From a phage: 64,000 nucleotides of DNA. Shown in pieces: positions 10,206 through 38,657 of the stretch (position 1 is its first letter; each line of letters starts with the position of its first letter). The position numbers were made by a program, and so were the translations under genes. Below the pieces are notes generated by a model that was given only the letters and a program-made list of their open reading frames with translations, was not told where the DNA came from and did no database searches. The stretch lies in sequence record PZ386947.1; one strand, 5' to 3'.

Positions 10206-10215
10206 AATTTCCTCA

Positions 10216-19552: not shown

Positions 19553-20155
19553 TTATAGATTAAATCCTTCAAAATCAAGAGTATAGATAGTGTATGTTGA
19601 ATACTTTTTATACTCATATCTATCTGCAATTCTAAATACACTTCCAGCTGGTATCATTACTTCTTGTTCATCTGAAACTAATTCCATATTACGATAACGA
19701 TGACTATCCGGAAACTTAAAGTTTGGATTGTATTCTTTACAGCGTAGAGCTTTTATAGCATACTCCTGGAAATTGAATACCATAGGAGCTTTGAATTCAA
19801 AAATAACTTGTGTGTTATACTCTAAACCGGAAGCAAAATGTAGAGCTATATTTTTATCATATGAAGCTGATACGACTTTATCAAATGTAATAATATCAAT
19901 TCCTTGATTTAACACCTGCTTAGTCTCAGCTGGAACACCTCTCCAAAGAGGTTTATCGTTTGGAACCAAACGAGATTTGATTATTTCATTTAACCAAGAA
20001 TGATCGTCTGGTTTATTAGTAATACAATGAATTAAAAGTTCAATTTCAGATAAATTAAACCCTTCAGAAAGTAATTCTTCACGAATAGAAGCACGCACCG
20101 ATGCATCCATTGATTTTATTTTAAAATCTTTTAGTTGCATTACTGAGTATTTCAT
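19553..20155 (-). CDS. modA: ModA, ADP-ribosyltransferase
   Basis: 200 aa as T4 ModA; R / S-x-S / E-x-E ART motifs (LWRG, SAS, EQEVMIP). Confidence 0.7.
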   Translation of the reverse strand: MKYSVMQLKDFKIKSMDASVRASIREELLSEGFNLSEIELLIHCITNKPDDHSWLNEIIKSRLVPNDKPLWRGVPAETKQVLNQGIDIITFDKVVSASYDKNIALHFASGLEYNTQVIFEFKAPMVFNFQEYAIKALRCKEYNPNFKFPDSHRYRNMELVSDEQEVMIPAGSVFRIADRYEYKKYSTYTIYTLDFEGFNL

Positions 20156-20775
20156 TCAACTACCTCAATATCATAAACTTTAAATGTTCCAAATGAATCG
20201 TGTAATTTTTCTTTTGAAATAGAAGTTATTCTATACTTTCCAATTGGAATCATCCATTCCTGTTCACGCACAATCATCATTAAGTTATCAGTACGCTCTG
20301 AATCTAATCCATCAGTATCTTCATACGTGTACTTAAACTCAGTATTAGGAGAAGAAAGTATAATATCGCTGATATGGTCAGAATAATTAAAAGCTTTATT
20401 AGTTTTTAAGCGAAGTATTATTTTAGTAAAATATTCAGCGTAAGAAAAAGAACATGCTGTGAGCAAACTAGTAGTAAATGAATCTACTCTATTCGTTGAA
20501 AACACTTCTCCAACTTGTAAATCTTTAATAAGTTCTTCTGTTGATTTTGATATACCACGATATAACTGATAAGGTGATTTAGTTAAATGCTTTTTAATGA
20601 TTTTATTCAACTGCCGATGAAGAGCTTCATTCTTTTTGGCTTCCATACATTGCCAAAGAACTGACTGCTCAAAGTCAGTAAATTTTTCACAGACCTTTTT
20701 ATACATATCATATTGAAAATCGACGCTTTCAGCTTTTATAGATAACTGTTCAACATCTGCAAGATTAATAATCAT
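20152..20775 (-). CDS. modB: ModB, ADP-ribosyltransferase
   Basis: 207 aa as T4 ModB; motifs YRG, FSTNRV, EQEWMIP; SD ACGGAGG. Confidence 0.7.
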   Translation of the reverse strand: MIINLADVEQLSIKAESVDFQYDMYKKVCEKFTDFEQSVLWQCMEAKKNEALHRQLNKIIKKHLTKSPYQLYRGISKSTEELIKDLQVGEVFSTNRVDSFTTSLLTACSFSYAEYFTKIILRLKTNKAFNYSDHISDIILSSPNTEFKYTYEDTDGLDSERTDNLMMIVREQEWMIPIGKYRITSISKEKLHDSFGTFKVYDIEVVE

Positions 20776-20801
20776 GATAGCCTCCGTATACTTCAGAAGC
20801 T

Positions 20802-20831
20802 ATCATATCATCGTTAGAAAGGAAAGTAAAC
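20802..20831 (-). promoter_or_regulatory. T4-type early promoter upstream of modB
   Basis: GTTTAC, 18 nt, TATGAT. Confidence 0.5.
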
Positions 20832-20842
20832 AACTTTTTGAA

Positions 20843-21025
20843 TTATTTTGCCCAGGGAGCCCAGGGCGGAGGGTCAAGATGGTATGAAGCTAGTTCTTCT
20901 AGAAGAGCATCTGGGGCTTCAATTCCATAATTCTGTAATACTATACGGTACTCTTTCTTATAATCACTGGAATCATTCTGGTTATTCGTAAAATGATTAT
21001 CTTCTAACATCTCAAATAAATCCAT
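20843..21025 (-). CDS. hypothetical protein (60 aa)
   Basis: ORF track; ATG 21023-21025; SD AGGAATTAAT. Confidence 0.45.
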   Translation of the reverse strand: MDLFEMLEDNHFTNNQNDSSDYKKEYRIVLQNYGIEAPDALLEELASYHLDPPPWAPWAK

Positions 21026-21033
21026 ATTAATTC

Positions 21034-21504
21034 CTAGCGATAAAAACCAAATTGACGATTAGCTTCAATAATCTTTCTTTCTTCTTCGGACATTCTCCAG
21101 CGTAGTCCAACATCAAAATGAGCCCAGACCATCTTAACAAATGCATTTATATCTTTAATATCTTCAATAATGAATGATTTACTTTTAGAAGGTTGACTCG
21201 CTAATTTAACTTTATCGTCTTCAAACAGGTCAAAAAGACCATATTCATGGGCTCTTTTATAGCCTTTAATAGTTAAAGCTTCAGAAGAAGAAAAAGGTGA
21301 ATCTGTATTCTGCAAAATATCTTCAGTATGCTTTATAATTAGAATAACATTTTCTGGATATTTTCTTTCTTTTATATCTTTAATTAAAAGATCCGGATTT
21401 TCTGCTAAAGGAATAATTAATGAGCACTTTTTATCAAGTGTATTTACTGATTTACCTTCTTTGGACATAAATTCTATTGAATAATGTTTTGCTACTTCAA
21501 TCAT
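21034..21504 (-). CDS. hypothetical protein (156 aa)
   Basis: ORF track; SD AAAAGGAAATCAC. Confidence 0.5.
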
Positions 21505-21649
21505 GTGATTTCCTTTTGCCTACTAATGGACCGTCAGGAATTTTATTTTCCTGAATGTATTTTTCATTTTCTTCCATCATTTTACTGCCAATTTTAAGAA
21601 GCAAATCCATTGCTTCATTTGCTTTAGCTTTAGCCTCTTCTAATATCAT
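21497..21649 (-). CDS. small hypothetical protein (50 aa)
   Basis: fills the 21505-21657 gap; ATG 21647-21649; weak SD; below track cutoff. Confidence 0.3.
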
Positions 21650-21657
21650 ATCTCTGT

Positions 21658-21861
21658 TCACGATTTATCCCCATAGATGTCTCTCATTAATTTAAGCGCT
21701 GAGCGTTCTAATTTCTTTTCTTTCTCAGCACTAATCATTGATTTCATCCATTCTTCCGATTCGTTCTGCATTTCTTTATTTGCTTGTTCAACCCAACCAT
21801 CATCAATATACATCGAGTTTGGTCTATTGAACCATTCAAGCATCTTCTTCAGAGCTTTCAT
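21658..21861 (-). CDS. hypothetical protein (67 aa)
   Basis: ORF track; ATG 21859-21861. Confidence 0.45.
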
Positions 21862-22321
21862 TTGTTTTACCTAAAACAACAGTAGGAGCATCATCAAATT
21901 CATGAATTTTTAGCAAATTTGGATGTAAACTATTCCATACAGAAGAAATAAAGTATGATAACGCATCTTCACTTGCAATTATAAATTTATTTCCTTTATC
22001 TATTTTCCAACTATATAGTGAATCGTACGAATAAAAAGATAAAGGCTTATCATTATATTGTTCTGCGCTAACATTAATGTATTCGGATTTAGTAAATGCT
22101 TCAATTGCTCTAAATGGAATATTTGGTACAGTTTCAATAATACCAATCTTTTTAAGTTTTATTTCAGCATCTTCTGGAACTGGCATTGAAACGAAATTTT
22201 CTACGAGATACATTGGGTCACAATAACCCTTATCAATCATTACTGCTACGGTAATTGGAACGTCTTTAGCAAACGACATACTATTACTGCTAATATACAT
22301 TTCAAACAAAATCGCTTCCAT
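21836..22321 (-). CDS. hypothetical protein (161 aa), mrh position
   Basis: ATG 22319-22321 after SD TTGAGGAAAATT; track start is upstream TTG. Confidence 0.5.
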
Positions 22322-22329
22322 AATTTTCC

Positions 22330-22668
22330 TCAATCACAAGATGTAGATGAACAACTAGAATCACAAGAACTTCCACATGAATCGCCCGTCCATACATGAA
22401 CAGGAACATTAGTGTCATATGAATCAGAACTAGACTGTGTATTCTGCGTATTAGATGATGTAGGTGTTGACCAACGCCAAGGATTTTTATAATATTCCTG
22501 GGCTTCTTCATAAGTCATAGTAACTGCTTCTACTGTTCCATCTCCCATATAAACATATTCAACTACAGTTAAAGGGAGGTAGTCATTTGAAATAGGAACT
22601 ACACCTTCTCCGGGAGTTGTAGAGAAAAAATCCGTAAAGAAACTTTTAAACCAATTAAAGATAAACAT
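22330..22668 (-). CDS. hypothetical protein (112 aa) with hydrophobic N-terminus and Ser/Cys-rich C-terminal tail
   Basis: ORF track; ATG 22666-22668; tail ...[17 protein letters not shown]. Confidence 0.5.
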
Positions 22669-22874
22669 TACAAAAAGCCTCTTTTGAATTCGACCTGCTT
22701 CTCACCATAATCATATCGAATCTCTGCGTTAAATTCAACAGACCCATCTGCGTGCATCATAAATGAATGCACAACAACTTCTGTAGACCAGGGTTGCAAT
22801 TCATATTTCTTCATTACATGCCGTGAAATGATAATATCTAAATCTTCATTTGGTTTAATCCAACGATTTAACAT
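22668..22874 (-). CDS. hypothetical protein (68 aa)
   Basis: ORF track; SD AGAGGAGAGCACT. Confidence 0.45.
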   Translation of the reverse strand: MLNRWIKPNEDLDIIISRHVMKKYELQPWSTEVVVHSFMMHADGSVEFNAEIRYDYGEKQVEFKRGFL

Positions 22875-22900
22875 AGTGCTCTCCTCTATAAGATAATTCT

Positions 22901-22930
22901 ATTATACCATACTCATTTTGATATGTAAAC
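22901..22930 (-). promoter_or_regulatory. T4-type early promoter
   Basis: GTTTAC, 18 nt, TGG TATAAT. Confidence 0.5.
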
Positions 22931-22943
22931 CATTTAAATGAAA

Positions 22944-22965
22944 AAGGACTCCCGAAGGAGTCCTT
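22944..22965 (-). terminator. intrinsic terminator downstream of soc (9-bp stem, UUCG loop, U-tract)
   Basis: aaggactcc cgaa ggagtcctt. Confidence 0.55.
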
Positions 22966-22969
22966 GAAT

Positions 22970-23215
22970 TTATTCACCAGTTACTTTCCACAAATCTTCG
23001 TTTGCAGTAATCCATTCAGTACGTTGATTTTCTTCATATACTGTAGAATATGCTGCTTTTTCTGAAGGGAATGTCTGGTAATGTGCACCAGAAATTTTGT
23101 GAACGTCAGAATAAAGAGGGAAAGCTACGGAAATTTCCTTTCCTTCAATTTTCTTATTTCCATCTAATTTCTGCTCAAATGTTTTGATATTAACATAACC
23201 ACGAGTACTAGCCAT
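22970..23215 (-). CDS. soc: Soc, small outer capsid protein
   Basis: 81 aa; sequence recognised (MASTRGYVNIKTFEQKLDGNKKIEGKEISVAFPLYSDVHKISGAHYQTFPSEKAAYSTVYEENQRTEWI...); SD AAAAGGAGAATTAC. Confidence 0.85.
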   Translation of the reverse strand: MASTRGYVNIKTFEQKLDGNKKIEGKEISVAFPLYSDVHKISGAHYQTFPSEKAAYSTVYEENQRTEWITANEDLWKVTGE

Positions 23216-23245
23216 GTAATTCTCCTTTTATTTAAATTACATGAT

Positions 23246-23253
23246 TATTTATA
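23246..23253 (-). promoter_or_regulatory. T4 late promoter core TATAAATA upstream of soc
   Basis: plus-strand tatttata is TATAAATA on the minus strand, about 30 nt upstream of soc ATG. Confidence 0.5.
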
Positions 23254-23298
23254 ATAAATTCTCGCGGCTTTTAAGTCGTCGTTTATTTAAACGAGCTA

Positions 23299-23817
23299 TT
23301 AATAGCCTCGGTCTTGACGAGCGAAATTTTCAGCATTTTTCAGATAATAAAGTTTAAATATTTCTTCAGCTGACATTCCAAGAGCAATAAATTTATTCAT
23401 GAAAAAGTGAAATTGGTCAATCAGTTCAAATTTAATTTCAAGCTGATCTTCAGGAGATAAGTCTTGAATTTTCTTGGATTGCATTTCAGAATAACGTTTC
23501 TTCCAAGGTTTCCATACGGCAGAAGCTTCTTTTTCACCATTACTCATACCACCAAGAGAAGTATATAGTTCGCGAGTTTCATCTGCGATATAATCGTCTT
23601 GGTTTCGCAACCAAGCAAGAACTTCTCCTGCAGTTTCAAGTGAATCGGGATGACGATTTGTTTCTGGTTTATCATTAGCCAAACGAATCTGTAAATGCCG
23701 CTGCATATCAAGCATAACCTGCAGTGGGTCAATATTGTGCATAATATTCTCAGCATATGCACGATTTGCTTTATCAACACCTTCGATCAAATGAGCGCAT
23801 TCATTAAAGTGAGCCAT
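23299..23817 (-). CDS. 56: gp56, dCTPase/dUTPase (MazG-like)
   Basis: 172 aa from ATG 23815-23817; sequence recognised (MAHFNECAHLIEGVDKA...); track ORF is a GTG-initiated upstream extension. Confidence 0.85.
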   Translation of the reverse strand: MAHFNECAHLIEGVDKANRAYAENIMHNIDPLQVMLDMQRHLQIRLANDKPETNRHPDSLETAGEVLAWLRNQDDYIADETRELYTSLGGMSNGEKEASAVWKPWKKRYSEMQSKKIQDLSPEDQLEIKFELIDQFHFFMNKFIALGMSAEEIFKLYYLKNAENFARQDRGY

Positions 23818-23851
23818 TATTTTTCCTTTCAATTCATGAGTTAGTAGATTA

Positions 23852-23877
23852 ATTATACAATAAATATATAAAGCAAT
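23852..23877 (-). promoter_or_regulatory. MotA-dependent middle promoter upstream of gene 56
   Basis: MotA box ATTGCTTTA, 11-nt spacer, TATAAT. Confidence 0.5.
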
Positions 23878-23888
23878 AAGGAGGACAT

Positions 23889-24089
23889 ATGGTACAAAAA
23901 TTAATGGCACTTGTTAATGCCATCAAAGGTAATAAAAAGCGTATAGCTTTTACTATTTCTGCTATGGTAGGAATTTTACTCTGGAACTTTATTCTATCAC
24001 CTGTTGCAATTGCACATGGTATTAATATTCCAGTAGTTACTCTTGATACATTCGTAGATCTAGCATTTGCTTTAGTTGGGTTAATTTAA
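23889..24089 (+). CDS. hypothetical small membrane protein (66 aa), only plus-strand candidate gene in the window
   Basis: ORF track; SD AAGGAGG 4 nt before ATG; two hydrophobic segments; fills the 56-61 gap exactly; stop overlaps gp61 stop. Confidence 0.4.
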   Translation: MVQKLMALVNAIKGNKKRIAFTISAMVGILLWNFILSPVAIAHGINIPVVTLDTFVDLAFALVGLI

Positions 24090-25114
24090 ATCTTGGCATA
24101 TTTAGATAGCCGCATTTTAGCCATCAACCCCTGGGCAATATTATTTTTCATATATTCCATAATTTGTTCAGGGGTTGCACCTTCCTTTCTAATCATATCA
24201 TTAACATCTTTTGATTTCCAGGGAGATTTATCCCAAAACATAACCCTTTCTCCTGCATCAACTAATTTAGTCATTCGTTTGATAGTGTCAGGATGACGAG
24301 GTTCATTATCTAAAACCCACACACGTCTATCTTTAAATGGAACAACTTCTAGGTCTAATTGACCACCCGTAATAGCTATACCATTTTCAATAAAAAGTGA
24401 ATCTATAGGTCCTTCTAGAACATATACATCACCATTTTTAACTCGTTCGACTCCATAGATTTTTGTTGCCTCAGGATAAGCTTTGATAGTGATATATTTT
24501 TGAGGAGCATCTTTCTTTAATGCACGTCCTTGAAAAGACTCAGCTTTTCCATTAGCATTATAAATTGGAATAACAAGACGAGGCTCAGGTATTTCCTTTT
24601 TGTATGTTCCCGGTGCTATGCTATTAACTAATTTAGGCCATTCGGTTGTAAACCAAAGATATTTCCATTTATCCTTTGGAATACAACGAGCTTTTATATA
24701 TTTTATAATTGCATGGTCTTCCGCCAGTTTATCTAATCGAACACATGACGGAAGAGATTTAATTATTTTCTTCTCAGGTTGTTTAGGAAGTTCTTTAGGT
24801 TTTTCTACTGGACGACTTTTACCTTTTTCTTTTCTTATTTCAAAGATATACTCACGATATAAATCAGGTTCAAACTCCTTTAAATATATTCCGATTGGTG
24901 CATGATAGTTACAGTTATAACAATGAATATTTCCTTCATTATTATCACCATAATACCATCCACGAGCTTTATTCTGGTCGGTTTTTGAATCTCCACAAAC
25001 AGGACATCTAAACCGTAATTTAAAAGTTGAACTATTATTTACTTGTGTGAATTTAGGTAAATGAGCCAATGCACGATATGCAAACTCATTATCAATCCAA
25101 GGTATTGATGACAT
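24086..25114 (-). CDS. 61: gp61, DNA primase
   Basis: 342 aa as T4 gp61; N-terminal zinc ribbon CPVCGDS...CYNC; sequence recognised. Confidence 0.9.
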   Translation of the reverse strand: MSSIPWIDNEFAYRALAHLPKFTQVNNSSTFKLRFRCPVCGDSKTDQNKARGWYYGDNNEGNIHCYNCNYHAPIGIYLKEFEPDLYREYIFEIRKEKGKSRPVEKPKELPKQPEKKIIKSLPSCVRLDKLAEDHAIIKYIKARCIPKDKWKYLWFTTEWPKLVNSIAPGTYKKEIPEPRLVIPIYNANGKAESFQGRALKKDAPQKYITIKAYPEATKIYGVERVKNGDVYVLEGPIDSLFIENGIAITGGQLDLEVVPFKDRRVWVLDNEPRHPDTIKRMTKLVDAGERVMFWDKSPWKSKDVNDMIRKEGATPEQIMEYMKNNIAQGLMAKMRLSKYAKI

Positions 25115-25116
25115 TT

Positions 25117-25281
25117 TTACTCTTCTTTTTCTTTAGATTCCTCTTTTTTCTTTTTAGGAATCTGCTCAGGACCTTTATTTACTACAGCGCCTGATGTTGT
25201 TCCAGTAGAGATATTTTCAGGACTACCACCTGAATCTCCAGCGACCATATCTTCTTTGATAAATTCTTTATATGTTTTCAT
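25117..25281 (-). CDS. small acidic/lysine-rich protein (54 aa), 61.1 position
   Basis: ATG 25279-25281; stop 3 nt before gp61 ATG; below track cutoff. Confidence 0.45.
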   Translation of the reverse strand: MKTYKEFIKEDMVAGDSGGSPENISTGTTSGAVVNKGPEQIPKKKKEESKEKEE

Positions 25282-25282
25282 A

Positions 25283-25909
25283 TTAACCTCTATTCATAAA
25301 AGCATTAAAAATTTGGTCATCAATAGAAACATTTACTTTAGACTGTTTTTCTGATGGTAATTCATATCCACATATTACAATTTTGTGATCAATATCAAAA
25401 TACACAGAAGCAATATGATTAATGATGTTTTCAGTAAAGTCTAAATCAACATCAATATCTTTTTGACCACAGCCCAAAGGATAAATAATGCGAGTAATTC
25501 GATTATCTTTAACAAATATTCCACCGACATACTCTGTACTGCGTTTAAAGTCTACACGCCGACGAAATGAAAAATATTCAGGCTCTTTATGAGCTCGGCT
25601 CATAGGACACAACGAGTAACTAGAATAAGAGATGTCAAATCCTACGCCTTCGATATGAGCCAAAGTGTCATGATTAAACCAATTATAATCGTACGCCAAA
25701 TCCATTAGATTATAATATGTAAAAGGCACCGGATTAACATCATTAGTCACAAGCATGTAATTAGCAACTGCTATAATTTCATTGTTTTTAACGAATACAA
25801 ACCGTGATTGATGCGAATGACCTGGACCCGCGTTTTCACGATTAATGATATAACACTGGGCACCTTTATATTTGTATGTATCTTTGCATTTGTGCATTTG
25901 ATAGAGCAT
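25283..25909 (-). CDS. hypothetical protein (208 aa), 61.2 position
   Basis: ORF track; ATG 25907-25909. Confidence 0.55.
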   Translation of the reverse strand: MLYQMHKCKDTYKYKGAQCYIINRENAGPGHSHQSRFVFVKNNEIIAVANYMLVTNDVNPVPFTYYNLMDLAYDYNWFNHDTLAHIEGVGFDISYSSYSLCPMSRAHKEPEYFSFRRRVDFKRSTEYVGGIFVKDNRITRIIYPLGCGQKDIDVDLDFTENIINHIASVYFDIDHKIVICGYELPSEKQSKVNVSIDDQIFNAFMNRG

Positions 25910-26202
25910 TATTCACCTACCACTTCAGCGATGATATTTTTGTTATTAAAGTTTTTATCGCAATACAGAACATAATTATACTGCATTACACCACCAGACT
26001 TAAGTTGTTTTTGCACTTCAGCTTTCATTTCAGGACGATCGCGCTCAACGATATTCATAATATCCGCTTCAATTTGAGTTTCAACCTCAGTCTGATCCGC
26101 AGTCATAGACCATTCACACAAATCTTTATCATAACCTGCCATAGCAGGCTGAGCAGCACAAGAAGCTAAAGCAAAAATTGTGGCAAAGATAAATTTTTTC
26201 AT
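25909..26202 (-). CDS. sp: Sp (spackle)-like periplasmic protein
   Basis: 97 aa with cleavable signal peptide (…AQPAMA); size and position as T4 sp; SD ACTGAGGAGATTATC. Confidence 0.6.
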   Translation of the reverse strand: MKKFIFATIFALASCAAQPAMAGYDKDLCEWSMTADQTEVETQIEADIMNIVERDRPEMKAEVQKQLKSGGVMQYNYVLYCDKNFNNKNIIAEVVGE

Positions 26203-26230
26203 GATAATCTCCTCAGTAGTTTATGTTTAT

Positions 26231-26260
26231 ATAGTATCTCAATTTCCAACAAAAGTAAAC
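26231..26260 (-). promoter_or_regulatory. T4-type early promoter upstream of sp
   Basis: GTTTAC, 18 nt, TACTAT. Confidence 0.5.
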
Positions 26261-26262
26261 AG

Positions 26263-26520
26263 TTATTTTAAAATTTCTGCGTAATCACATGTTACAAACT
26301 GTTTCTCTAGCTTGACGATTTTACGAAAGTATCTTTTGCATTGGCGAATCTGCCGCTTCGTAGGGCGAACAGCAAACTTAATAAATTCCACTCGACCAAA
26401 TGGAGGACTTTCTTCTGCTGGAATATCTAACACCAATTCCCACGTATCTGCAATAAGTGCTTTGAATTGCGTATTTTTCCTGACGTTATACGGAGTAGGT
26501 TTAAATAAAACAATATGCAT
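26263..26520 (-). CDS. hypothetical protein (85 aa) immediately downstream of dmd (61.4 / tifA position)
   Basis: ATG 26518-26520 with SD GCCGAGGATAAT, one nt after dmd stop; track start is upstream TTG. Confidence 0.45.
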   Translation of the reverse strand: MHIVLFKPTPYNVRKNTQFKALIADTWELVLDIPAEESPPFGRVEFIKFAVRPTKRQIRQCKRYFRKIVKLEKQFVTCDYAEILK

Positions 26521-26521
26521 A

Positions 26522-26704
26522 TTATCCTCGGCAATCCACTTCACACACTTTCTTGTCATCAATGAAAGCTTTAACTAATGCTTTATTAACTTCAGCATAT
26601 TGAGTAGTAGCCCATTGAACGTCATCTTTCATCATTGTGGTTTCTTTAGTAAACATGCTTTCATTCTTAAACCACCCCATAAAAACTACCTTTACCAATT
26701 CCAT
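26522..26704 (-). CDS. dmd: Dmd, antitoxin against host RnlA/LsoA
   Basis: 60 aa; sequence recognised as T4 Dmd (MELVKVVFMGWFKNESMF...); SD AATGAGGAGATTGTT. Confidence 0.7.
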   Translation of the reverse strand: MELVKVVFMGWFKNESMFTKETTMMKDDVQWATTQYAEVNKALVKAFIDDKKVCEVDCRG

Positions 26705-26733
26705 AACAATCTCCTCATTTAACCAACAAGACT

Positions 26734-26763
26734 ACTATACCATAGTCTTGTCAGCTTGTAAAC
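26734..26763 (-). promoter_or_regulatory. T4-type early promoter upstream of dmd
   Basis: GTTTAC, 18 nt, TGG TATAGT. Confidence 0.5.
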
Positions 26764-28190
26764 TAAAATTTTAATTCATTTGCCAAAGCATCTAACTGAG
26801 CTCGAGTGGATTCATTTCTTTGATAGCGATTCTGCTCAGCCTGAATCTGTTGTGAACCTGCTACTTCACTCACTTCAGTTGGAGTAGAATCTTGTTCAAT
26901 TTCTACCCATTTTTGATTTCCTTTTTGAACACCCATCAAAAACTTATTCCACTTATTCTTATCACCATATCGTGATTTGATTTGCTTAATGAGTTGTTGT
27001 TCAGCAGCTGCTAGCTCTTCGGTTTCAATGACCGCAAGCATAAAATCAGCTGTTGCTGGAAGACCAGCAGATTCTGCAATATCGCTCATGTTAACATCAG
27101 AAGAATCCCAAGCCTGTTTACCAACCTGTGCTGCAGTCCAAAGAACAGTTTCGGTTTCAACAGCAAGAGCACGCAATTCCTCTGCAATAGCTTTAACAGT
27201 TGTGTAACTATTTTCTGAGTAAACTCTGATGCGGCAAGATTTACAAATACCTAGATAGTCGACAATAATGATTGTTGGAACAAAATTCTTTTTGAGCTTC
27301 AATTCATTCAAGAGAGACCTGAATGTGTTAGCATCTGCCCCACCAGTAGGGTACTGTTTAACAATTAAACGACCGAGAGTAGATTTCTCACGCCATTTTT
27401 CCATTTTTCCTTTATACTCAGCGTAAGAAATATGCCCATCATCAATGTCATCAAGAGAAACATCAAGCATATTAGCGTCAATACGTTTAGCACAGACTTC
27501 TTCTGCCATTTCCATGGAAATGTAAAGAACATTATGTCCGAGCTGTAAATAATCTGCCGCTAATGAACACAATCCTAATGATTTACCAACGTTAACGCCA
27601 GCCATTAAAACGTTCAGTGTTCCAGTTTCAGCTCCGCCTTTCGTAATTTTGTTTAGAATTCTGAGTTTAAATGGAACCTTACGAGCTTTATTCATATAAG
27701 ATAGCCAACGTGCTTCGTAGTCATCCATCCAATCATGACCAACGTAGCTATCAAATGAAATTGATAATGCTTGGCGCATGATGTCAGGAATAGCACCAAC
27801 ATCCGGCATTTTCTTATTTCGTTTTTCCGGAGGAAGTTCAGCATTAGTTTGAATTTCGATTATTTTAGACGTAGCATTAAACATCGCCCTTTGCTGAACA
27901 TATTTTTCTGTTTCTTTTATTAACCAACTGTGGTCTTCCGGAGAATCAGCTAGTTTTGAAATAAGTGTTTTTACACCAGAATATTCCGTTTCAGTAAATG
28001 AACTATTTTCTAATGCAACATTTAACGCATTAATAGATGGAACGCTATGATACTCATTAACATGGGATTTAATTAATTTGAATGTATTTTTAGCTGGACC
28101 ACTTTCAAAATATTCTGAATCCATATATGGCCAAACTTTTGAAAAATAAGCTTGATCAAATATGAGATGAGAAAGAATAATTTCTACCAC
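26763..28190 (-). CDS. 41: gp41, replicative DNA helicase (DnaB-like)
   Basis: 475 aa as T4 gp41; GTG start with SD TTAAGGAG; Walker A GVNVGKS. Confidence 0.9.
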   Translation of the reverse strand: MVEIILSHLIFDQAYFSKVWPYMDSEYFESGPAKNTFKLIKSHVNEYHSVPSINALNVALENSSFTETEYSGVKTLISKLADSPEDHSWLIKETEKYVQQRAMFNATSKIIEIQTNAELPPEKRNKKMPDVGAIPDIMRQALSISFDSYVGHDWMDDYEARWLSYMNKARKVPFKLRILNKITKGGAETGTLNVLMAGVNVGKSLGLCSLAADYLQLGHNVLYISMEMAEEVCAKRIDANMLDVSLDDIDDGHISYAEYKGKMEKWREKSTLGRLIVKQYPTGGADANTFRSLLNELKLKKNFVPTIIIVDYLGICKSCRIRVYSENSYTTVKAIAEELRALAVETETVLWTAAQVGKQAWDSSDVNMSDIAESAGLPATADFMLAVIETEELAAAEQQLIKQIKSRYGDKNKWNKFLMGVQKGNQKWVEIEQDSTPTEVSEVAGSQQIQAEQNRYQRNESTRAQLDALANELKF

Positions 28191-28199
28191 ACTTACTCC

Positions 28200-28538
28200 T
28201 TAAAAGAATTTAAATTTTTTCTTTGACCTTTTATTAAATGCATCTTGCAGTTGCATTGTAATACATTTTTCTACATGAGGAGCTAACTCAGCTTTTCTTT
28301 CTTGGTCAAGAACAGCAAAGTCCATTACAACCTTTCCATCAACCCAATCTAATTTTGTCACATACACAATGTGTGTAGAACCATCTTCTAGTTTAATGAC
28401 AATCTCCTGGATAACATTTTCCATAGCAGATTTAATTATCTTAAGAGACTCATTAAAAAGACGTTCTTTTCTTTCTTCTTCCCCCTCCGAAGAGGGAGAT
28501 TCATCGATAATTTCTAGATCTAAATCATCTTTACTCAT
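28200..28538 (-). CDS. 40: gp40, head vertex assembly chaperone
   Basis: 112 aa from ATG 28536-28538 overlapping the uvsX 3' end; track start is upstream GTG. Confidence 0.65.
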   Translation of the reverse strand: MSKDDLDLEIIDESPSSEGEEERKERLFNESLKIIKSAMENVIQEIVIKLEDGSTHIVYVTKLDWVDGKVVMDFAVLDQERKAELAPHVEKCITMQLQDAFNKRSKKKFKFF

Positions 28539-29712
28539 TAAATTCTTCCATATCACTTAACTGCTCGAGGTCAGTTTCTAAATCAGCAGCTGATTTACTT
28601 TTACTTTCTGGAGATTTAAATTTTTCAACCTTTGAGTTAATCAATTCATCAACTTCAGCTTCAACAATTTCATTACTATCAATAGCACCTAACTGATAAG
28701 CACGTTTAATAGCATCTCGGAATGGTTGATGCTTAAATAAAGGACCCCAGAATGTAGTGCAGTTGGTATCTTTTGCACGCCAAGATTTTTCTTCGCGAAT
28801 CATCTCGCCGGTTTCTTCATCAAGAAATTCACGAGCATACCAGCCATTTTTAGGTTTTACCACGAATCCTAATTCTAGAGCCATATCTAACAATCCAGAA
28901 TAAGGATCGATACCACCGTCAAATTTAACATCAATAAAGAATTTACTTTTTTCTTTAACGGTACGAGATTTTTCTACATTTAGAACAAATTGATACCCCT
29001 GAAGATCAGAACCATCTTTAATCTGACGCTTACCGATAATGAATACAGTATCAGCCGAATACATTACGCCTGTACCACCTGTCATCACGGTTTTACTAAA
29101 CATTTCAATTGTTTCAATTGTATGGTTAACCGCAACACATGGAATATTTTTAATGCTAAAGTAAGGAGTAACAATACGGAATAATGACTTCAGTGATTTA
29201 GCACGAGTCATATCTGCCACAGATTTTTCATTCAAGGCATCTTCAGTTTCTTTCTTAGAAGCCATATTACCGATTGAGTCGATGAATACAATAACTTTTT
29301 CACCGCGCTCAATAGCTTCAAGCTGATTCACCATATCAATTTTCAGCTGTTCAACTGACTGGATTGGCGTATGAATTACTCGTTCCGGGTCAACTCCCAT
29401 GGATCGCAAATAAGCTGGAGTAATACCAAATTCGCTATCATAGAATAGACAAACCGCGTCAGGATATTTGTTCAAATATGCCGCAACCATAGTCAAAGAC
29501 ATATTTGATTTAAAGTGTTTAGAAGGCCCTGCGAAAATAGTTAAACCAGACTGCATACCGCCATCAATCGCACCAGAAATAGCAATATTAAGCATTGGAA
29601 TTTTTGTACGAATTACATCCTTTTCATTAAAGAATTTAGATGTAGTCAGTTCAGCAGTCATTTTAGAAGTGGAAGCTTTAATCAAACGGGATTTTAAATC
29701 TGCAATAGGCAT
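28531..29712 (-). CDS. uvsX: UvsX, RecA-like recombinase
   Basis: 393 aa; C-terminal two-thirds matches T4 UvsX as recalled; N-terminus diverged. Confidence 0.9.
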   Translation of the reverse strand: MPIADLKSRLIKASTSKMTAELTTSKFFNEKDVIRTKIPMLNIAISGAIDGGMQSGLTIFAGPSKHFKSNMSLTMVAAYLNKYPDAVCLFYDSEFGITPAYLRSMGVDPERVIHTPIQSVEQLKIDMVNQLEAIERGEKVIVFIDSIGNMASKKETEDALNEKSVADMTRAKSLKSLFRIVTPYFSIKNIPCVAVNHTIETIEMFSKTVMTGGTGVMYSADTVFIIGKRQIKDGSDLQGYQFVLNVEKSRTVKEKSKFFIDVKFDGGIDPYSGLLDMALELGFVVKPKNGWYAREFLDEETGEMIREEKSWRAKDTNCTTFWGPLFKHQPFRDAIKRAYQLGAIDSNEIVEAEVDELINSKVEKFKSPESKSKSAADLETDLEQLSDMEEFNE

Positions 29713-29789
29713 TCATTTTTTCCATAGGCATCATTATATTTTCCTCACTGGTTAAAGATAGAGTAATTATAACACAATAAATTTAGGCA

Positions 29790-30632
29790 TTAATCAACTG
29801 CTATTGGATGAATAGCATTAAACTTATGAAATGCTTCTGATTTTTCTTTACGAGAAACACACATGCGAAGAACCTTTAATGGCTCGTCTTCTTCACCCAA
29901 CGATTTTCGTTTTTCAATATTAGAAGTTTTCCAACGAGCTTGCTCTGGAAACTCTCTATTGATTTGCTCAAGCGCTCTATTATGTTTAGAATTACTACGA
30001 ATTGAACTGCACCCGCCAGGAGCTTGTGCTTTTCCAGATACAACCAGATATTTGAACAAGGCCAAATGCGGATAACCTTGATTAATTAAATTGAGAAATG
30101 CATACATATCTTCGCACAAATCAATTTTTCCATACCCAATTTGTTCTGTCGTAAGTTTTCCGAGGTCATACCATGTATTCGTGAATCCATATGAATTTTC
30201 ACGATAATTACCCCAAGATGAAGTAATTTTAAAAATAGGTAGACGAGCATGGCCATGATAATACCCACAATCCATGGCATCCTCAACATATTGAATCAAT
30301 TCATAGAACTGTTCACGAGTCAATTGATTGACTTTATCCACACAACGACGATCATCTCTTTTTCGCATTGAACTCATACGAATAGTAGTATCATCGTCAA
30401 TCATCCAGATTCGTTGACCTGCATACATATCAGTAATTGCTTTACGAGTACCAGCAATTCCATTTACATCATCAGGAATAGTTATAATTTTAGCTCTAGA
30501 CCCATAGGCATCATAATAAGCTTTTTCTTCATGTTCACGCACTACAATATGGGGTTCATAATCAGTCGGAAACATATCAAGGGCAGAAACTGCCCCGACA
30601 CGCTGATAACTTGGAATTACGAATTGAATCAT
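29790..30632 (-). CDS. ba-gt: glycosyltransferase (GT-A, DxD), most likely T2/T6-type beta-glucosyl-HMC-alpha-glucosyltransferase
   Basis: 280 aa from ATG 30630-30632 overlapping gene 42 stop; DDD motif; occupies the T4 beta-gt slot between uvsX and 42. Confidence 0.55.
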   Translation of the reverse strand: MIQFVIPSYQRVGAVSALDMFPTDYEPHIVVREHEEKAYYDAYGSRAKIITIPDDVNGIAGTRKAITDMYAGQRIWMIDDDTTIRMSSMRKRDDRRCVDKVNQLTREQFYELIQYVEDAMDCGYYHGHARLPIFKITSSWGNYRENSYGFTNTWYDLGKLTTEQIGYGKIDLCEDMYAFLNLINQGYPHLALFKYLVVSGKAQAPGGCSSIRSNSKHNRALEQINREFPEQARWKTSNIEKRKSLGEEDEPLKVLRMCVSRKEKSEAFHKFNAIHPIAVD

Positions 30633-31369
30633 TTCCACTCACCTTTATAGTCTTTTTTCACAATATGAGTTTCGCCAGTATTCCACCAATGATCAACCAA
30701 GTAAAAATGACGAGAATATACATGAAGACTTCCGACATTCCATATAATAGAACCTGCTTTATACTGACGAGTTGAATCGCCGGCATTCAAATCAGATACT
30801 AATTTATCTAATACGTATTTTTGCCATGCATAATCATTACGGAATCCGAAGACCACGTCATTTGAGCGCATGCTTACTACTGCATTGACTTTCTTATCAC
30901 GAATCAGGTACTGTACTGTATTAGTACACATGAAATCTGACATACCATCTTTATTGTAGTCAAATTGCATGGATGGACGAGTATAAATCATGATACCACG
31001 TCGAGAATCAGGATTTTGACCAAGTTCAGCTAAACACATATCATACTGGGCATAGTTATCTTCTGACCAAATAGCCCAACCATAATTCGAGTTAATTTCG
31101 CCTTTAGAAGATGCTACCTGCTGCCAAATCTTTGGTGTTTCACCTGGAATATCTTTAACAAACAAGCTCTTAGATTTATACCATTCAAGTTCACGCTGAA
31201 TGTATTCATCATTAAGAGCGCCAAAAATAAACGGTTCATCTGCTACAAATGATGCGCCAATAATTTCAATAGTTTTAACACCGGTTTTATCAACTACGAA
31301 ATCTTTTTCTTTTAATGCAAGCCCCAAATGAAGACGGATTTCTTCAACTGTCATAGAGTCACTAATCAT
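30629..31369 (-). CDS. 42: gp42, dCMP hydroxymethylase
   Basis: 246 aa as T4 gp42; sequence recognised. Confidence 0.9.
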   Translation of the reverse strand: MISDSMTVEEIRLHLGLALKEKDFVVDKTGVKTIEIIGASFVADEPFIFGALNDEYIQRELEWYKSKSLFVKDIPGETPKIWQQVASSKGEINSNYGWAIWSEDNYAQYDMCLAELGQNPDSRRGIMIYTRPSMQFDYNKDGMSDFMCTNTVQYLIRDKKVNAVVSMRSNDVVFGFRNDYAWQKYVLDKLVSDLNAGDSTRQYKAGSIIWNVGSLHVYSRHFYLVDHWWNTGETHIVKKDYKGEWK

Positions 31370-31376
31370 TTAAACC

Positions 31377-31526
31377 TCAATTGATACATTCATATTTAAC
31401 TTGTAACAGTAATAAACCCCAACCTAAAATAATAGTTGGAATCATAAGAGGAACCGTTACACTATAGTATATACTTATTATAATCATCAAGATTAAAAGC
31501 AACACTGCTATAATTTTGCTTTTCAT
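31377..31526 (-). CDS. small membrane protein (49 aa)
   Basis: ATG overlaps imm stop (ATGA); hydrophobic; stop inside gene 42 SD region; below track cutoff. Confidence 0.35.
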   Translation of the reverse strand: MKSKIIAVLLLILMIIISIYYSVTVPLMIPTIILGWGLLLLQVKYECIN

Positions 31527-31774
31527 TCCTTCTCTCTGATGATAATTACCTGATTTGGTTGTGCAGACTTTTTAGTTTCACCCGCAATTGACCAAATAAA
31601 TGTAATAAACCAACCAATAATTGACCAGTTAAACAGTAAAGATGTGAAAAAGATTCCTACTGTCGATTTTGACCCACGCATCAAGGCGATAAACCATGGA
31701 AGCATGTATATAATAATAGCCAACACACCTGAAACTAAAACCATAAAAATTGAACCTGCTACTAAAGTTTCCAT
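31523..31774 (-). CDS. imm: Imm-like membrane protein (superinfection immunity)
   Basis: 83 aa, two TM segments; size and position as T4 imm. Confidence 0.6.
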   Translation of the reverse strand: METLVAGSIFMVLVSGVLAIIIYMLPWFIALMRGSKSTVGIFFTSLLFNWSIIGWFITFIWSIAGETKKSAQPNQVIIIREKE

Positions 31775-31781
31775 GTTTTCA

Positions 31782-32162
31782 TCACTTAGTCAAATTTTTT
31801 ACACATGAATTATAAGAATTCACTACATACTCCATCGGAGCATTTTTACCAGTACGCCATTGGTAATTATTAGCCCAATTAGCCCAAATTTCGGCGCAGT
31901 AGTTTTCAATTTTTTCTTCGCGTGTAATTACATCAGAATTACGATATGCTTGAGCAGATTCATCTGGACGAATAGCTTCGTCAAAATTCGCCTGCATTTG
32001 TTCGACTGTTTGCTTTGGAGCTTCTTTATAACACTTGACATTAGGATTATAAAATTTGCTTGAACAGTTTACAATTTTTCCTACATCAGACTGATTTACT
32101 ACCGGTCCTTGAGCTACACAACCAGTAAGACCTAATGCAATAACCAAAATAGCGATTTTCAT
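31782..32162 (-). CDS. putative lipoprotein (126 aa)
   Basis: ORF track; signal peptide with lipobox LTGC; SD TTGAGGAAATTATT. Confidence 0.5.
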   Translation of the reverse strand: MKIAILVIALGLTGCVAQGPVVNQSDVGKIVNCSSKFYNPNVKCYKEAPKQTVEQMQANFDEAIRPDESAQAYRNSDVITREEKIENYCAEIWANWANNYQWRTGKNAPMEYVVNSYNSCVKNLTK

Positions 32163-32172
32163 AATAATTTCC

Positions 32173-32409
32173 TCAAATGCAAGTAGTAATTACTCCAGTA
32201 GTGCTTATGCAGGTATTACCCATTTGCACACCTAAAGATCCATTTGTATTCACATGAAGATTATCATCAATTTTAACTGATATTTTACCATTAGTGTGAA
32301 TAACGGTGCTAGATTCAATCACAGGTTGAGTATCATTTTCAACACTAACAAATGGAACTGCTGCTAATGCAACTAAACAAACTGCTAAGCATCCCATAAC
32401 AATTTTCAT
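32173..32409 (-). CDS. small secreted protein (78 aa)
   Basis: ATG 32407-32409 after SD TTGGAGAATAAA; N-terminal signal peptide. Confidence 0.45.
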   Translation of the reverse strand: MKIVMGCLAVCLVALAAVPFVSVENDTQPVIESSTVIHTNGKISVKIDDNLHVNTNGSLGVQMGNTCISTTGVITTCI

Positions 32410-32443
32410 TTTATTCTCCAAATCCGTATTAGTTGATAGTTGT

Positions 32444-32473
32444 ATAGTACCATGGAAGAACAGTCTTGTAAAC
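32444..32473 (-). promoter_or_regulatory. T4-type early promoter
   Basis: GTTTAC, 18 nt, TGG TACTAT. Confidence 0.5.
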
Positions 32474-32560
32474 AGTTTTGTGAAAATTTTTTAGGGAATT
32501 CTAAAGGTCCAGAATCATCTGTTTTTCATAAGTATAGATTTATATTACTTGTATGAAAAA

Positions 32561-32576
32561 GGGACCCGGAGGTCCC
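32561..32576 (-). terminator. terminator hairpin downstream of gene 43
   Basis: gggacc cgga ggtccc followed by U-run on minus transcript. Confidence 0.5.
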
Positions 32577-32589
32577 TAGATTTATTCTA

Positions 32590-35286: not shown

Positions 35287-35344
35287 AGATATTCCTTAGT
35301 TTATAGCCCGAGTTATTAGGCTCTTGATATATTATACTCCAATT

Positions 35345-35362
35345 AAGGGGCCGAAGCCCCTT
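35345..35362 (-). terminator. UUCG-tetraloop hairpin downstream of regA
   Basis: aaggggc cgaa gcccctt. Confidence 0.5.
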
Positions 35363-35364
35363 GC

Positions 35365-35733
35365 TTAATTACCAATCGTATATTTAGGAACGAGTTTCCA
35401 TTCATGTTTTTGTTTAAAAGAAATAACTCGGAAGTTATTAGTTAAATCTTTCATAAAAGTTCTTTGACCAGGAACGATTTCAATCAGTCCCCAATCTTCT
35501 AACAACCATGCAATCGAATCACGACGAACTTCATCTTCTTCTGTCATTTCAACCTGGCGACCATCCATACGAAGCATTTCTTTAAAATGAACGATATAGT
35601 ATAGTCCTTTTTTCTGAAGAATATGACAGGACTGATACAGAACTTTATCTTTATTATTAGCAATTCCCATACGAGTCAAAGTTTCTTTTACTTTCAGAAA
35701 ATCTTCAGGTTTTTTAAGAGTAATTTCAATCAT
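35365..35733 (-). CDS. regA: RegA, translational repressor
   Basis: 122 aa; sequence recognised as T4 RegA. Confidence 0.9.
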   Translation of the reverse strand: MIEITLKKPEDFLKVKETLTRMGIANNKDKVLYQSCHILQKKGLYYIVHFKEMLRMDGRQVEMTEEDEVRRDSIAWLLEDWGLIEIVPGQRTFMKDLTNNFRVISFKQKHEWKLVPKYTIGN

Positions 35734-35734
35734 T

Positions 35735-36298
35735 TTACCATTCCAATGCTAGTTTTTTGAGTTGTTTCTGTTCTTTTACGTTCTTAGTCACTTCTTTCAA
35801 AAAATCATCCGTGACTAATCCTTTAAGTTCTTTTAATACTAAAGGTAGTTTTCCATTTTTAGTAAGAATTGATTTATAGTTAATTGCATCATTTGTATTA
35901 ACTTGATAACGCTTAGCAAGTAACTTAATAATCAATACTTCGGTGGAATCTTCAACTAGTTTTGCCCATTTACCATATCTTTTACCACGAGGAACTGCAG
36001 CCATTAGATAATTAAAATGAGCTTCATCACTTAATCCAGAACCGATTAAATTCATAGCATATACAGCTGGCATGCACTCTGGAAATTGTGATAATGCATT
36101 TTCAACCATGAATTTTGAATAATCTTTTTGAGCAATAGAGCATTTAGTTTTATTATTAATAGCTCCAATTATTTCAAAAAACTCATTTTCAGCTTTTTCT
36201 TTAAAAGAATCAGCAGCGGATTGGACAGCCGTCCAATCTTTTGAATACCAAGCAACTTGATGCTCGTTTAATTGAATATCATCTTCAAATAAGCTCAT
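35735..36298 (-). CDS. 62: gp62, clamp loader small subunit
   Basis: 187 aa from ATG 36296-36298 as T4 gp62; track start is upstream extension. Confidence 0.85.
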
Positions 36299-36299
36299 A

Positions 36300-37259
36300 T
36301 CACTTCCACTGCATTTCACATGCTAACTGAATGAAAAGATAAGCTAAATGCAATTCAGTATTAGCTGCAATACCATGATACTGATTATTTTCGCCGACAA
36401 TTTCGTACATACGAATAATACTCTGTGGAGTTACACGTGAATAGATTTCTTCGGCAAGTTTACCCACGAACCACGAATAATCGGCTGCATATTTTGGTGC
36501 TAAAGCTCTGAGTTGTTTAACATCTTTATTTTTGAGAGACTCAAGAACATCATCAATAGCACCACGATCGTTAGTAACCAGTGATAAAATACCAGCATCC
36601 AAAACACCTTTAGATGAATAACTATCGAGCTCGCCAATAGTTTTACGAAAATCAGGAAAATTCTTTTTAACCAAAGCTGCTACAACTTTCATATCAGCTA
36701 TAGCAATTCCTTCATGCTTACAGATTTCAGTCAATCGACGAATCATCTGCTTCATCATTTCAATTTTATCTTCATCGGTCGGTTGACCGAACGTAATAAC
36801 TCGGCAGCGTGACTGAAGTGGTTTAATAATACCATCAATATTGTTAGCAGTAATAATAATACTACAGTTTGAACTATAAGCTTCCATAAAGGAACGAAGA
36901 TGTCGCTGAGACTCTGCTAACCCTGAACGGTCAAATTCATCAATAACGATTACTTTTTGACGACCGTCAAATGAAGCTGCGCTGGCAAAATTAGTCAAAG
37001 GACCACGAACGAAATCAATTTTACAATCTGATCCATTCACAAACATCATATCAGCATTTACATCATGACACAATGCTTTCGCTACAGTTGTTTTACCTGT
37101 TCCTGGAGAAGGAGAATGAAGAATAATATGTGGAATCTTACCTTTACTTGTAATAGATTTAAAGGTTTCTTTATCAAAGGCGGGAAGAATACATTCATCG
37201 ATAGTAGATGGACGATATTTCTGTTCAAGAATGTGTTCTTTTTCATTTACGGTAATCAT
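36300..37259 (-). CDS. 44: gp44, clamp loader AAA+ ATPase subunit
   Basis: 319 aa from ATG 37257-37259 (SD GAGGAAATT) as T4 gp44; Walker A GTGKTT. Confidence 0.9.
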
Positions 37260-37293
37260 AATTTCCTCATTCAAGTTTTAGTGTAAATTATAA

Positions 37294-37307
37294 AGGGCCG
37301 AAGCCCT
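37294..37307 (-). terminator. UUCG-tetraloop hairpin downstream of gene 45
   Basis: agggc cgaa gccct. Confidence 0.45.
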
Positions 37308-37310
37308 CTA

Positions 37311-37997: not shown

Positions 37998-38052
37998 GTA
38001 ATTTCCTTCAATTCAAATGAGATTTAATTTTATAACTAATTTAATAAAGCAA

Positions 38053-38442
38053 TTAACGATTAAAATCAGCCGCAATTGTTTCCGCAACAATTTGAGCAGC
38101 AACAATTAGACGTTCATCTGCATTACCACAATAATCATCTTCAAGGCGTTCACCACATGAAGTCATAATAAATTTAGCACCGGCGTTTAGGGATTCTGTA
38201 GTATGTTTGCGCATTAGTTCAATCCATTTATTACTTACTTCACGATCGATAGCTTCATAATACGCATGACGAGCAGGTGCAGATTTAATTTTGTTCTGAA
38301 TAACTTCCATTGCGTTATCAGAAAGAGACAAAACCCATGCTCGACGAATTTTATTTTGATTTTGTGGATTTGATTCAGAACGCACGTGTTTTGGCTGAAT
38401 ATCTTTTACATCAACAGTATAATTCACAGTAATTTTAGTCAT
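38053..38442 (-). CDS. rpbA: RpbA-like RNA polymerase binding protein
   Basis: 129 aa; size and position as T4 rpbA; SD AAAGGTGTATT. Confidence 0.6.
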
Positions 38443-38451
38443 AATACACCT

Positions 38452-38640: not shown

Positions 38641-38657
38641 GTTTTTCCTCCATAGAG

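Follow-up and report, generated by a model that had tools for sequence, protein, structure and literature searches.

A conserved small gene for a predicted membrane protein, with late-type promoter signals, between genes 56 and 61 of T4-like phages

The interval between genes 56 and 61 of T4-like phages raises a question of orientation and of content: what is a single plus-strand open reading frame (ORF) doing within a block of minus-strand genes, in a place where T4 carries dam? We analyzed a stretch of phage DNA of 64,000 nucleotides (PZ386947.1), here called the window, which corresponds to positions 159221..167247 of Shigella phage CM8 (MK962750, genus Tequatrovirus) joined to positions 1..55973. 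The 1.9 kb around the ORF are 100% identical to CM8. The gap between the start of gene 56 and the stop of gene 61 is 268 nt, and the sole long ORF in it lies on the plus strand. The features of the interval, in window coordinates, are the following.

23299..23817, minus strand: gene 56 (dCTPase), the divergent neighbor, with its start at 23817
23852..23857, minus strand: TATAAT, the -10 element of the predicted gene 56 middle promoter, by sequence match
23859..23866, plus strand: T4-type late-promoter motif AATAAATA (-13 to -6), 22 nt upstream of the ATG
23869..23878, minus strand: MotA box TATTGCTTTA of the predicted gene 56 middle promoter, with an 11-nt spacer to the -10 element
23878..23884, plus strand: near-perfect Shine-Dalgarno sequence AAGGAGG, 4 nt before the ATG
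23889..24089, plus strand: ORF of 66 amino acids from ATG to TAA, entered for CM8 as CM8_00030 (hypothetical protein)
23896..23926, minus strand: terminator-like stem-loop (23926..23901) with UUUUU behind it, lying within ORF codons 5-13
24086..25114, minus strand: gene 61 (DNA primase), with its stop codon at 24086..24088, overlapping the ORF stop in TTAA

A first-pass annotation of this DNA had described a plus-strand ORF of 66 amino acids in the gap, preceded by AAGGAGG, and our check of the sequence agrees. The stop codons of the ORF and of gene 61 have 2 nt in common (24087-24088), as had been stated. It had also been stated that everything else here is on the minus strand, and this is borne out by the CM8 annotation, where the ORF is the sole plus-strand CDS between holin t and gene 53 (from the end of t at CM8 158415 to the start of gene 53 at 76522, outside CM8 50074-54838). 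Several plus-strand ORFs of equal length lie antisense within the neighboring genes.

A protein-coding gene conserved next to the primase gene

The ORF was already on record: it is an annotated gene in CM8 and in hundreds of other genomes, from an uncharacterized family. The exact CM8 peptide occurs in 259 public contigs, always under the name "hypothetical protein", and is identical to the protein of phage RB14, where the ORF is RB32ORF030w and is labeled "similar to RB69ORF029w"; the RB69 copy is RB69ORF029w itself. The CM8 product matches the phrog_2024 profile over residues 2-66 of 66 (E = 1.4e-31), and every member tested matches it, including relatives from other genera (E = 1.8e-22 to 2.9e-27). 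PHROGs lists this family under unknown function. CM8_00030 is a member of the RB69ORF029w / RB32ORF030w family (PHROG 2024), whose proteins have 61-69 amino acids.

The same ORF is present in T4 and T2. In T4, it occupies NC_000866 17738..17938, with dam on one side and gene 61 on the other, and its product differs by 2 amino acids. Neither NC_000866 nor MT984581 nor the historical record K03113 annotates it, and we found no NCBI accession for the exact T4 peptide.

The length of the ORF says little by itself. An ATG-initiated ORF of at least 66 amino acids arose in 54 of 5000 first-order Markov simulations of the region, so length is surprising only at about the 1% level and it is conservation that makes the ORF a gene. 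By tblastn the ORF is present in 699 phage records, and in 692 of these at least 80% of it is covered in one piece, i.e., it is intact. Ratios of dN/dS (Nei-Gojobori) are 0.10-0.20 for pairs within Tequatrovirus and Mosigvirus, 0.18 and 0.50 for two Gaprivervirus pairs, and 0.18-0.45 between genera. The second codon position has the fewest variable sites, and the amino acid replacements within Tequatrovirus are mostly conservative (V/I, A/T, N/S). As a control, we followed an ORF of equal size on the strand opposite gene 61 (24093..24296); stop codons break it up in PP01, RB69, and CkP1. These comparisons show a protein-coding gene under purifying selection.

Homologues on the plus strand that converge on the 3′ end of gene 61 are found in at least eight genera, namely Tequatrovirus, Mosigvirus, Gaprivervirus, Dhakavirus, Karamvirus, Jiaodavirus, Kanagawavirus, and Marfavirus, in phages whose hosts are Escherichia, Klebsiella, Enterobacter, Citrobacter, and Edwardsiella. 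Identity is 55% in Mosigvirus and 49% in Gaprivervirus. The 4-nt overlap of the two coding sequences is kept in most genera, occurring also in Mosigvirus, Dhakavirus, Karamvirus, Kanagawavirus, Marfavirus, and phage VR26, which has two tandem paralogues of the ORF. Direct contact with gene 61 is broken by inserts in RZ and EAWsc9 and by an 18-nt gap in KMI13, and in VR26, too, other DNA separates the ORF from gene 61. In RB49 (Krischvirus), genes 56 and 61 are just 14 nt apart and the ORF is absent. From this comparison of loci, the convergent position against the primase gene is shown to be conserved in Tevenvirinae of enterobacteria and in Marfavirus. A search for related loci with the CM8 protein alone gave 5 loci; searched against 5.8 billion proteins, the family profile matches 116 clusters, mostly on contigs of T4-like genome size, and the named ones among them are hypothetical proteins apart from two stray depositor labels.

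The relation to dam can be read from gene order. The statement in the first-pass annotation that T4 carries dam and the oriA region in the 56-61 interval is right; the T4 record places oriA at the 5′ end of gene 56. Its remark that the interval contains no methyltransferase can be extended, as there is none anywhere in CM8: the best tblastn match of T4 Dam to the whole CM8 genome has E = 0.23, and the DPPY motif, proposed there as a check, is absent from the long ORFs of the genome. T2 has dam first, then an additional ORF of 546 nt, and the small ORF last. A T4-type dam is present in ~184 phage records and the ORF in ~503 Tequatrovirus records, so the dam-less layout of CM8 is the common one. 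Judged from gene content and order, dam is an accessory insertion on the upstream side of the ORF, carried by about a third of Tequatroviruses. We reject a replacement of dam by the ORF, since T4 and T2 possess both.

Predicted promoter and terminator signals on the two strands

The plus strand upstream of the ORF contains a T4-type late-promoter motif. Transcription from AATAAATA is predicted to start at ~23872, giving a 17-nt leader, and the motif falls within the spacer between the MotA box and the -10 element of the predicted gene 56 promoter, which points the other way. The published consensus for late promoters is TATAAATA at -13 to -6, with a T at -13 that is poorly conserved (PMC1524935); A occupies -13 in 9 of 50 listed T4 late promoter sites and is given as the commonest variant (PMC2988020). 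In CM8, the AATAAATA variant is the form found at genes t, 15, and inh. We scanned the plus strand upstream of the ORF for other promoters and found no sigma-70-like or middle promoter.

Several genome-wide counts bear on whether the motif is meaningful. The pattern NATAAATA has 59 sites on both strands of CM8, against ~120 expected from base composition, and 26 of the 59 lie 12-36 nt upstream of a Shine-Dalgarno sequence, an ATG, and an ORF. The ORFs downstream of these 26 sites are nearly all known late genes (53, 9, 15, 18, 19, 20, 22, 24, 51, 34, 36, t, soc, e, inh). With its motif at 22 nt, the plus-strand ORF has the same spacing as these genes. Within the ~85-kb minus-strand early block, ATAAATA on the plus strand is depleted 4-fold (8 seen, 31 expected).

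The signal is also conserved at this locus. Of 11 lineages, 10 retain the ATAAATA core, at a distance of 15-22 nt from the ATG. Within Tequatrovirus it is present in three unrelated upstream contexts (no dam; dam; dam with an extra ORF), and it recurs in Mosigvirus, Gaprivervirus, Dhakavirus, Jiaodavirus, Marfavirus, and Kanagawavirus, where the flanks are unalignable. Marfavirus and Kanagawavirus have the form TATAAATA; Karamvirus CkP1 deviates, with one core mismatch (ATTAAATA). All lineages retain a Shine-Dalgarno sequence, GGAGG or GGAG. In the record of phage Lutter, the homologous GATAAATA carries a depositor annotation as a promoter of 8 bp, formatted like the one given there for soc. 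As mild evidence against a late promoter, the HMM-based list of RB69 late promoters of Nolan et al. 2006 has no site here. Our literature search found no transcript, ribosome-profiling, or proteomic data on the ORF; the supplement of the DksA RNA-seq study covers annotated genes only.

From these signals we strongly infer that the ORF is a late gene, which would be transcribed by RNA polymerase with gp55 from AATAAATA and translated from the near-perfect Shine-Dalgarno sequence. As a late gene, it would be the sole gene of late polarity (plus strand) in the ~85-kb early/middle block.

The minus strand has its own signals in the same DNA. The first-pass annotation placed the MotA box of the gene 56 middle promoter against the ORF, and the box, read from 23878 to 23869, does adjoin the plus-strand Shine-Dalgarno sequence. 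The predicted gene 56 promoter has the features expected for MotA dependence, i.e., a box of the form (a/t)(a/t)(a/t)TGCTT(t/c)A, a spacer of 11-13 bp, and a -10 element TAnnnT. The hairpin, 18 nt upstream of the MotA box, has a predicted energy of -12.4 kcal/mol (z = -4.3) and looks like the terminator of the gene 61 transcript. It is found only in Tequatrovirus and is absent in Mosigvirus, Gaprivervirus, and Karamvirus, where the peptide motif persists without it; the hairpin is thus ruled out as the reason for the conserved 5′ end of the ORF. Minus-strand sigma-70-like matches inside the ORF are weak (9/12) and do not exceed the shuffled expectation for the region.

On the plus strand beyond the ORF, there is no terminator-like site for ~4.2 kb. 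A late transcript should therefore run antisense into gene 61 and beyond.

The predicted protein and its possible role

The protein is probably a single-pass inner-membrane protein with a basic, amphipathic N-terminal helix in the cytoplasm and its C-terminus outside. Family members have 4-6 lysines and arginines before the transmembrane helix and 0-1 after it. TMHMM run on RB69ORF029w gives one transmembrane segment, at residues 21-41 (PMC1524935 supplement). Two AlphaFold2 runs (pLDDT 80 and 77) predict helices at residues 2-12, 16-42, and 52-62/63, with a loop at 43-51. In these models, the transmembrane helix has 27 residues and a stripe of small and polar residues, and a tail of ~24 residues would lie in the periplasm or at the membrane interface.

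The first-pass annotation described two hydrophobic segments. Both stretches exist, at residues ~19-42 and 49-66 behind a basic N-terminus, but the second is not a membrane span across the family. The C-terminal 18 residues are hydrophobic in Tequatrovirus (KD 2.05), Mosigvirus, and Gaprivervirus type A (KD ~2), but not in Kanagawavirus, Karamvirus, and Jiaodavirus (KD 0.6-0.9). The C-terminal helix in the AlphaFold2 models has just 11-12 residues. Because these 18 residues are hydrophobic in Tequatrovirus, the segment could, in CM8 itself, be a second span or a re-entrant one. As a whole, the earlier reading survives in that this is a genuine, conserved gene for a small membrane protein; it erred in treating the ORF as filling the place of dam, for which it is no substitute, and it overlooked the late-promoter motif.

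Conserved residues are concentrated in one part of the protein. Across 31 diverse members, W32, N33, and P38 never vary, A40, G44, P48, and G64 are nearly invariant, and position 53 is Asp or Glu in most. T22, N33, and S37 form a polar stripe on the transmembrane helix, and type B members carry an Asp in the helix. The invariant and nearly invariant positions place the conserved surface in that half of the transmembrane helix which would face the periplasm and in the tail next to the membrane.

Database searches returned the family itself. When six to ten members were scanned against Pfam, NCBIfam, and PADLOC, the output was empty or limited to noise below threshold, such as Borrelia P13, and at E <= 10 there was no match to any holin, antiholin, or spanin family in Pfam or NCBIfam. 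A phmmer search of 1.84 billion representatives recovered T4-like phage proteins only, besides three long repeat proteins (with PQQ-like "ALLWNF..SSPAVANG" repeats, and others), which we rejected as relatives because their E-values are sums of chance matches. A sequence search of the PDB and Foldseek searches of the PDB and BFVD found no relative outside the family.

The whole is best explained by a conserved late gene for a single-pass membrane protein, and we give this reading a rough probability of 0.55. The mechanism is more tentative. From the predicted late timing, the strong Shine-Dalgarno sequence, and the conserved face containing an Asn, we propose, by analogy and with low confidence, that the product may behave like a small membrane-protein regulator. 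Late in infection, the face with the Asn, close to the periplasmic leaflet, would mediate lateral association, either between copies of the protein or with a different membrane protein; polar Asn residues within membrane-spanning helices are well known to drive helices together. This association could then tune an event at the envelope in the late period, for which lysis timing (holin T, lysis inhibition) is the leading candidate, though a doubtful one. Against a role in lysis, nothing connects the protein to it: the gene shows no linkage to e, t, or the spanin genes, its product resembles no holin, antiholin, or spanin family, and no r-type locus is known at its map position. A modulator of late envelope events or of lysis timing, acting through association of transmembrane helices, is our best guess and one that we hold loosely.

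About as likely as lysis timing or lysis inhibition is a target in the host, either an inner-membrane protein or a membrane-bound defense effector, with a role in anti-defense, superinfection exclusion, or host takeover. The invariant residues in the periplasmic half of the helix and in the tail fit a partner that is conserved across five host genera. Genes in the neighborhood include dmd and 61.2 (tifA), which are known counter-defense genes, and sp and imm, which are exclusion genes. The known exclusion and counter-defense genes of T4 are early, however, whereas the ORF has a late-type promoter and neither a sigma-70 nor a middle promoter on its own strand, and PADLOC and the other family collections provide no lead to such a target.

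It is improbable that the product is a holin- or pinholin-like pore former that permeabilizes the inner membrane late in infection. The protein has the small size and hydrophobicity for this, a predicted late promoter whose form, AATAAATA, is also that of gene t, the polar stripe of T22, N33, and S37, and, in type B members, the Asp in the helix; two records even label it "Holin" or "holin family protein". Those labels carry no evidence, however, and no holin family in Pfam, NCBIfam, or PHROGs matches. The charged C-terminal tail is absent, with an uncharged, hydrophobic C-terminus and the charge cluster at the N-terminus instead, and only one membrane span is found across the family. Holin T is already present in these phages, and the ORF is not close to the endolysin or spanin genes.

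Like pore formation, a purely antisense role is less likely than lysis timing or a host target, and we consider it slightly more improbable still. The selected function would be the promoter, from which a late convergent antisense RNA would down-regulate 61, 61.1, 61.2, and sp, with the peptide secondary. The overlap of stop with stop leaves no room for a terminator, in keeping with the long plus-strand stretch free of terminator-like sites noted above, and the tail-to-tail order of the ORF and gene 61 is retained from genus to genus. Transcription of both T4 strands at different times has been described at several sites (PMC2988020), which also counts in favor. Purifying selection, however, acts on the peptide frame, with residues that stay invariant at 20-30% overall identity; the strong Shine-Dalgarno sequence is conserved, and an antisense RNA needs neither it nor a peptide. 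The DNA lying between the ORF and gene 61 in RZ, EAWsc9, and VR26 is a further point against.

The idea that this is a chance ORF in AT-rich DNA, kept because the region holds the 3′ UTR or terminator of gene 61 and the promoter or origin region of gene 56, could draw on the minus-strand hairpin, the MotA promoter, and the ~1% of simulations with an ORF of such length, but it is effectively refuted by the comparative data: dN/dS is 0.1-0.2, codon position 2 is the least variable, the ORF is kept at 20-55% amino acid identity where the DNA, hairpin included, is not conserved, and the control antisense ORF decays.

As a sequence feature, the ORF is ordinary: an annotated hypothetical gene, identical across hundreds of genomes. 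Its interest lies elsewhere. The gene is intact and under selection in T4, and yet NC_000866 and MT984581 omit it, so gene-level screens, proteomics, and RNA-seq counts that are based on the T4 reference annotation are blind to it. It is present in every Tevenvirinae genus examined besides Krischvirus RB49, and in Marfavirus, and could reveal an unrecognized function in the envelope or in lysis. As the sole plus-strand gene of the block, with its predicted promoter intertwined with that of gene 56 near the annotated position of oriA in T4, it would be a small, self-contained system in which to follow convergent transcription and the switching of promoters over time. That the locus encodes an overlooked late inner-membrane protein of lysis timing, lysis inhibition, or envelope control, or else provides a promoter that silences the primase operon in antisense, seems unlikely when put in those specific terms; if true, either would be a new player in a well-studied phage system.

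Comparison with known systems

RB69ORF029w and RB32ORF030w have the same length, the same convergent position, and the same ATAAATA and GGAGG signals as the CM8 gene, and there is no difference of substance.

A parallel for a small late gene in the early block is soc of T4, ~600 nt away, which also has its own late promoter directly upstream (TATAAATA at CM8 15227). It differs in that soc is on the minus strand like its neighbors and codes for a capsid decoration protein that is soluble.

T4 holin T (class III) resembles the CM8 product in its AATAAATA-type late promoter in CM8 and in the topology proposed here, with N-terminus in, a single span, and C-terminus out. Holin T is a protein of 218 amino acids with a large periplasmic domain that binds RI. 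The CM8 ORF has a tail of ~24 residues and no sequence or profile similarity to it. Small holins and pinholins, whether of two spans (phage 21 S68) or of one (T7 gp17.5), share with the CM8 product a size of 60-70 amino acids, hydrophobicity, and its predicted late timing; the CM8 ORF lacks their charged C-terminal tail, a conserved second span, linkage to an endolysin, and a family match.

Type I toxin-antitoxin systems (hok/sok, tisB/istR) offer another likeness, a gene for a small hydrophobic peptide that is fully overlapped on the opposite strand, here by the 3′ end of the gene 61 transcript. We see no dedicated antisense RNA gene or promoter at the locus, however, which belongs to a lytic phage and is probably under late-promoter control, and there is no homology.

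A functional analogy may be drawn with regulators of the MgrB, AcrZ, SgrT, and MgtS type. These are bacterial and have no homology to the CM8 ORF, which is phage-encoded, but its product is likewise a predicted single-span protein of < 70 amino acids with conserved residues in or next to the helix. The analogy suggests that it may act by binding a larger membrane protein.

A T4 copy of the small ORF and its annotation

The 66-aa small ORF has a counterpart in T4, with AAGGAGG ahead of its ATG:

NC_000866.4 17738..17938 (4739-4939 of L001, the T4 reference), plus strand: intact 66-aa small ORF between dam and gene 61
NC_000866.4 17709-17716: GATAAATA upstream of this ORF

It is without annotation in the T4 reference genome, in MT984581 and in the historical record K03113, and there is no NCBI accession for the exact T4 peptide. 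Three long repeat proteins returned by the phmmer search (P0032, P0036, and P0037) match the 66-aa query with E values of 1e-5 to 1e-20; the repeat-protein matches include a PQQ-like beta-propeller with repeated 'ALLWNY/F..SSPAVANG'. We rejected these proteins as relatives because their scores are solely the sum of many weak repeat matches, a trap for automated annotation.

The annotation of Shigella phage CM8 lists ipI, 'Ip5', and '57B' twice each, in tandem (CM8 71437-73559, which is L020 16438-18560). Such doubling may reflect a local duplication, or it may be an artefact of assembly or annotation.

Late-promoter motifs, possible readthrough, and a minus-strand hairpin

ATAAATA occurs 8 times on the plus strand of the 85-kb minus-strand gene block of CM8 (158416..167247 plus 1..76521) versus 31 expected (~4-fold depletion), and NATAAATA occurs 59 times in the whole genome, covered by the window together with L020-L022, versus ~120 expected. 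Such scarcity would be expected if stray late promoters were selected against. Downstream of the small ORF, in window 24089-28297, we found no plus-strand terminator-like site before the one at 28277-28297. A late transcript starting at the small-ORF promoter would run antisense through genes 61, 61.1, 61.2, and sp, and further still.

The opposite strand has a terminator-like site of its own:

Window 23896-23926, minus strand: terminator-like hairpin followed by UUUUU, within the 5′ end of the plus-strand small ORF

The hairpin, found in Tequatrovirus only, has 11 pairs, including 2 G-U (-12.4 kcal/mol, z = -4.3), and precedes the gene 56 MotA box by 18 nt. The gene 61 transcript probably ends here.

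The gene 56-gene 61 interval among relatives

The interval immediately upstream of the small-ORF promoter motif is a hot spot for insertions, and Tequatrovirus phages show three different layouts of it. In T2 (L014 572-1910), gene 56 and the small ORF are separated by dam and an extra hypothetical ORF of 546 nt. Gaprivervirus VR26 (L005 2495-2901) encodes the small protein as a tandem pair of paralogues, of which one is Tequatrovirus-like and the other Dhakavirus-like. In RZ (L018), the second paralogue is reduced to a remnant adjoining an inserted gene of ~750 nt, which bears a homing endonuclease annotation elsewhere. In EAWsc9 (L006), as in VR26 and RZ, other DNA lies between the small ORF and gene 61. 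Genes 56 and 61 of the Krischvirus RB49 (L031 1491-3052) are just 14 nt apart, with no convergent small ORF between them, and for this reason the family appears to be restricted to Tevenvirinae and Marfavirus.
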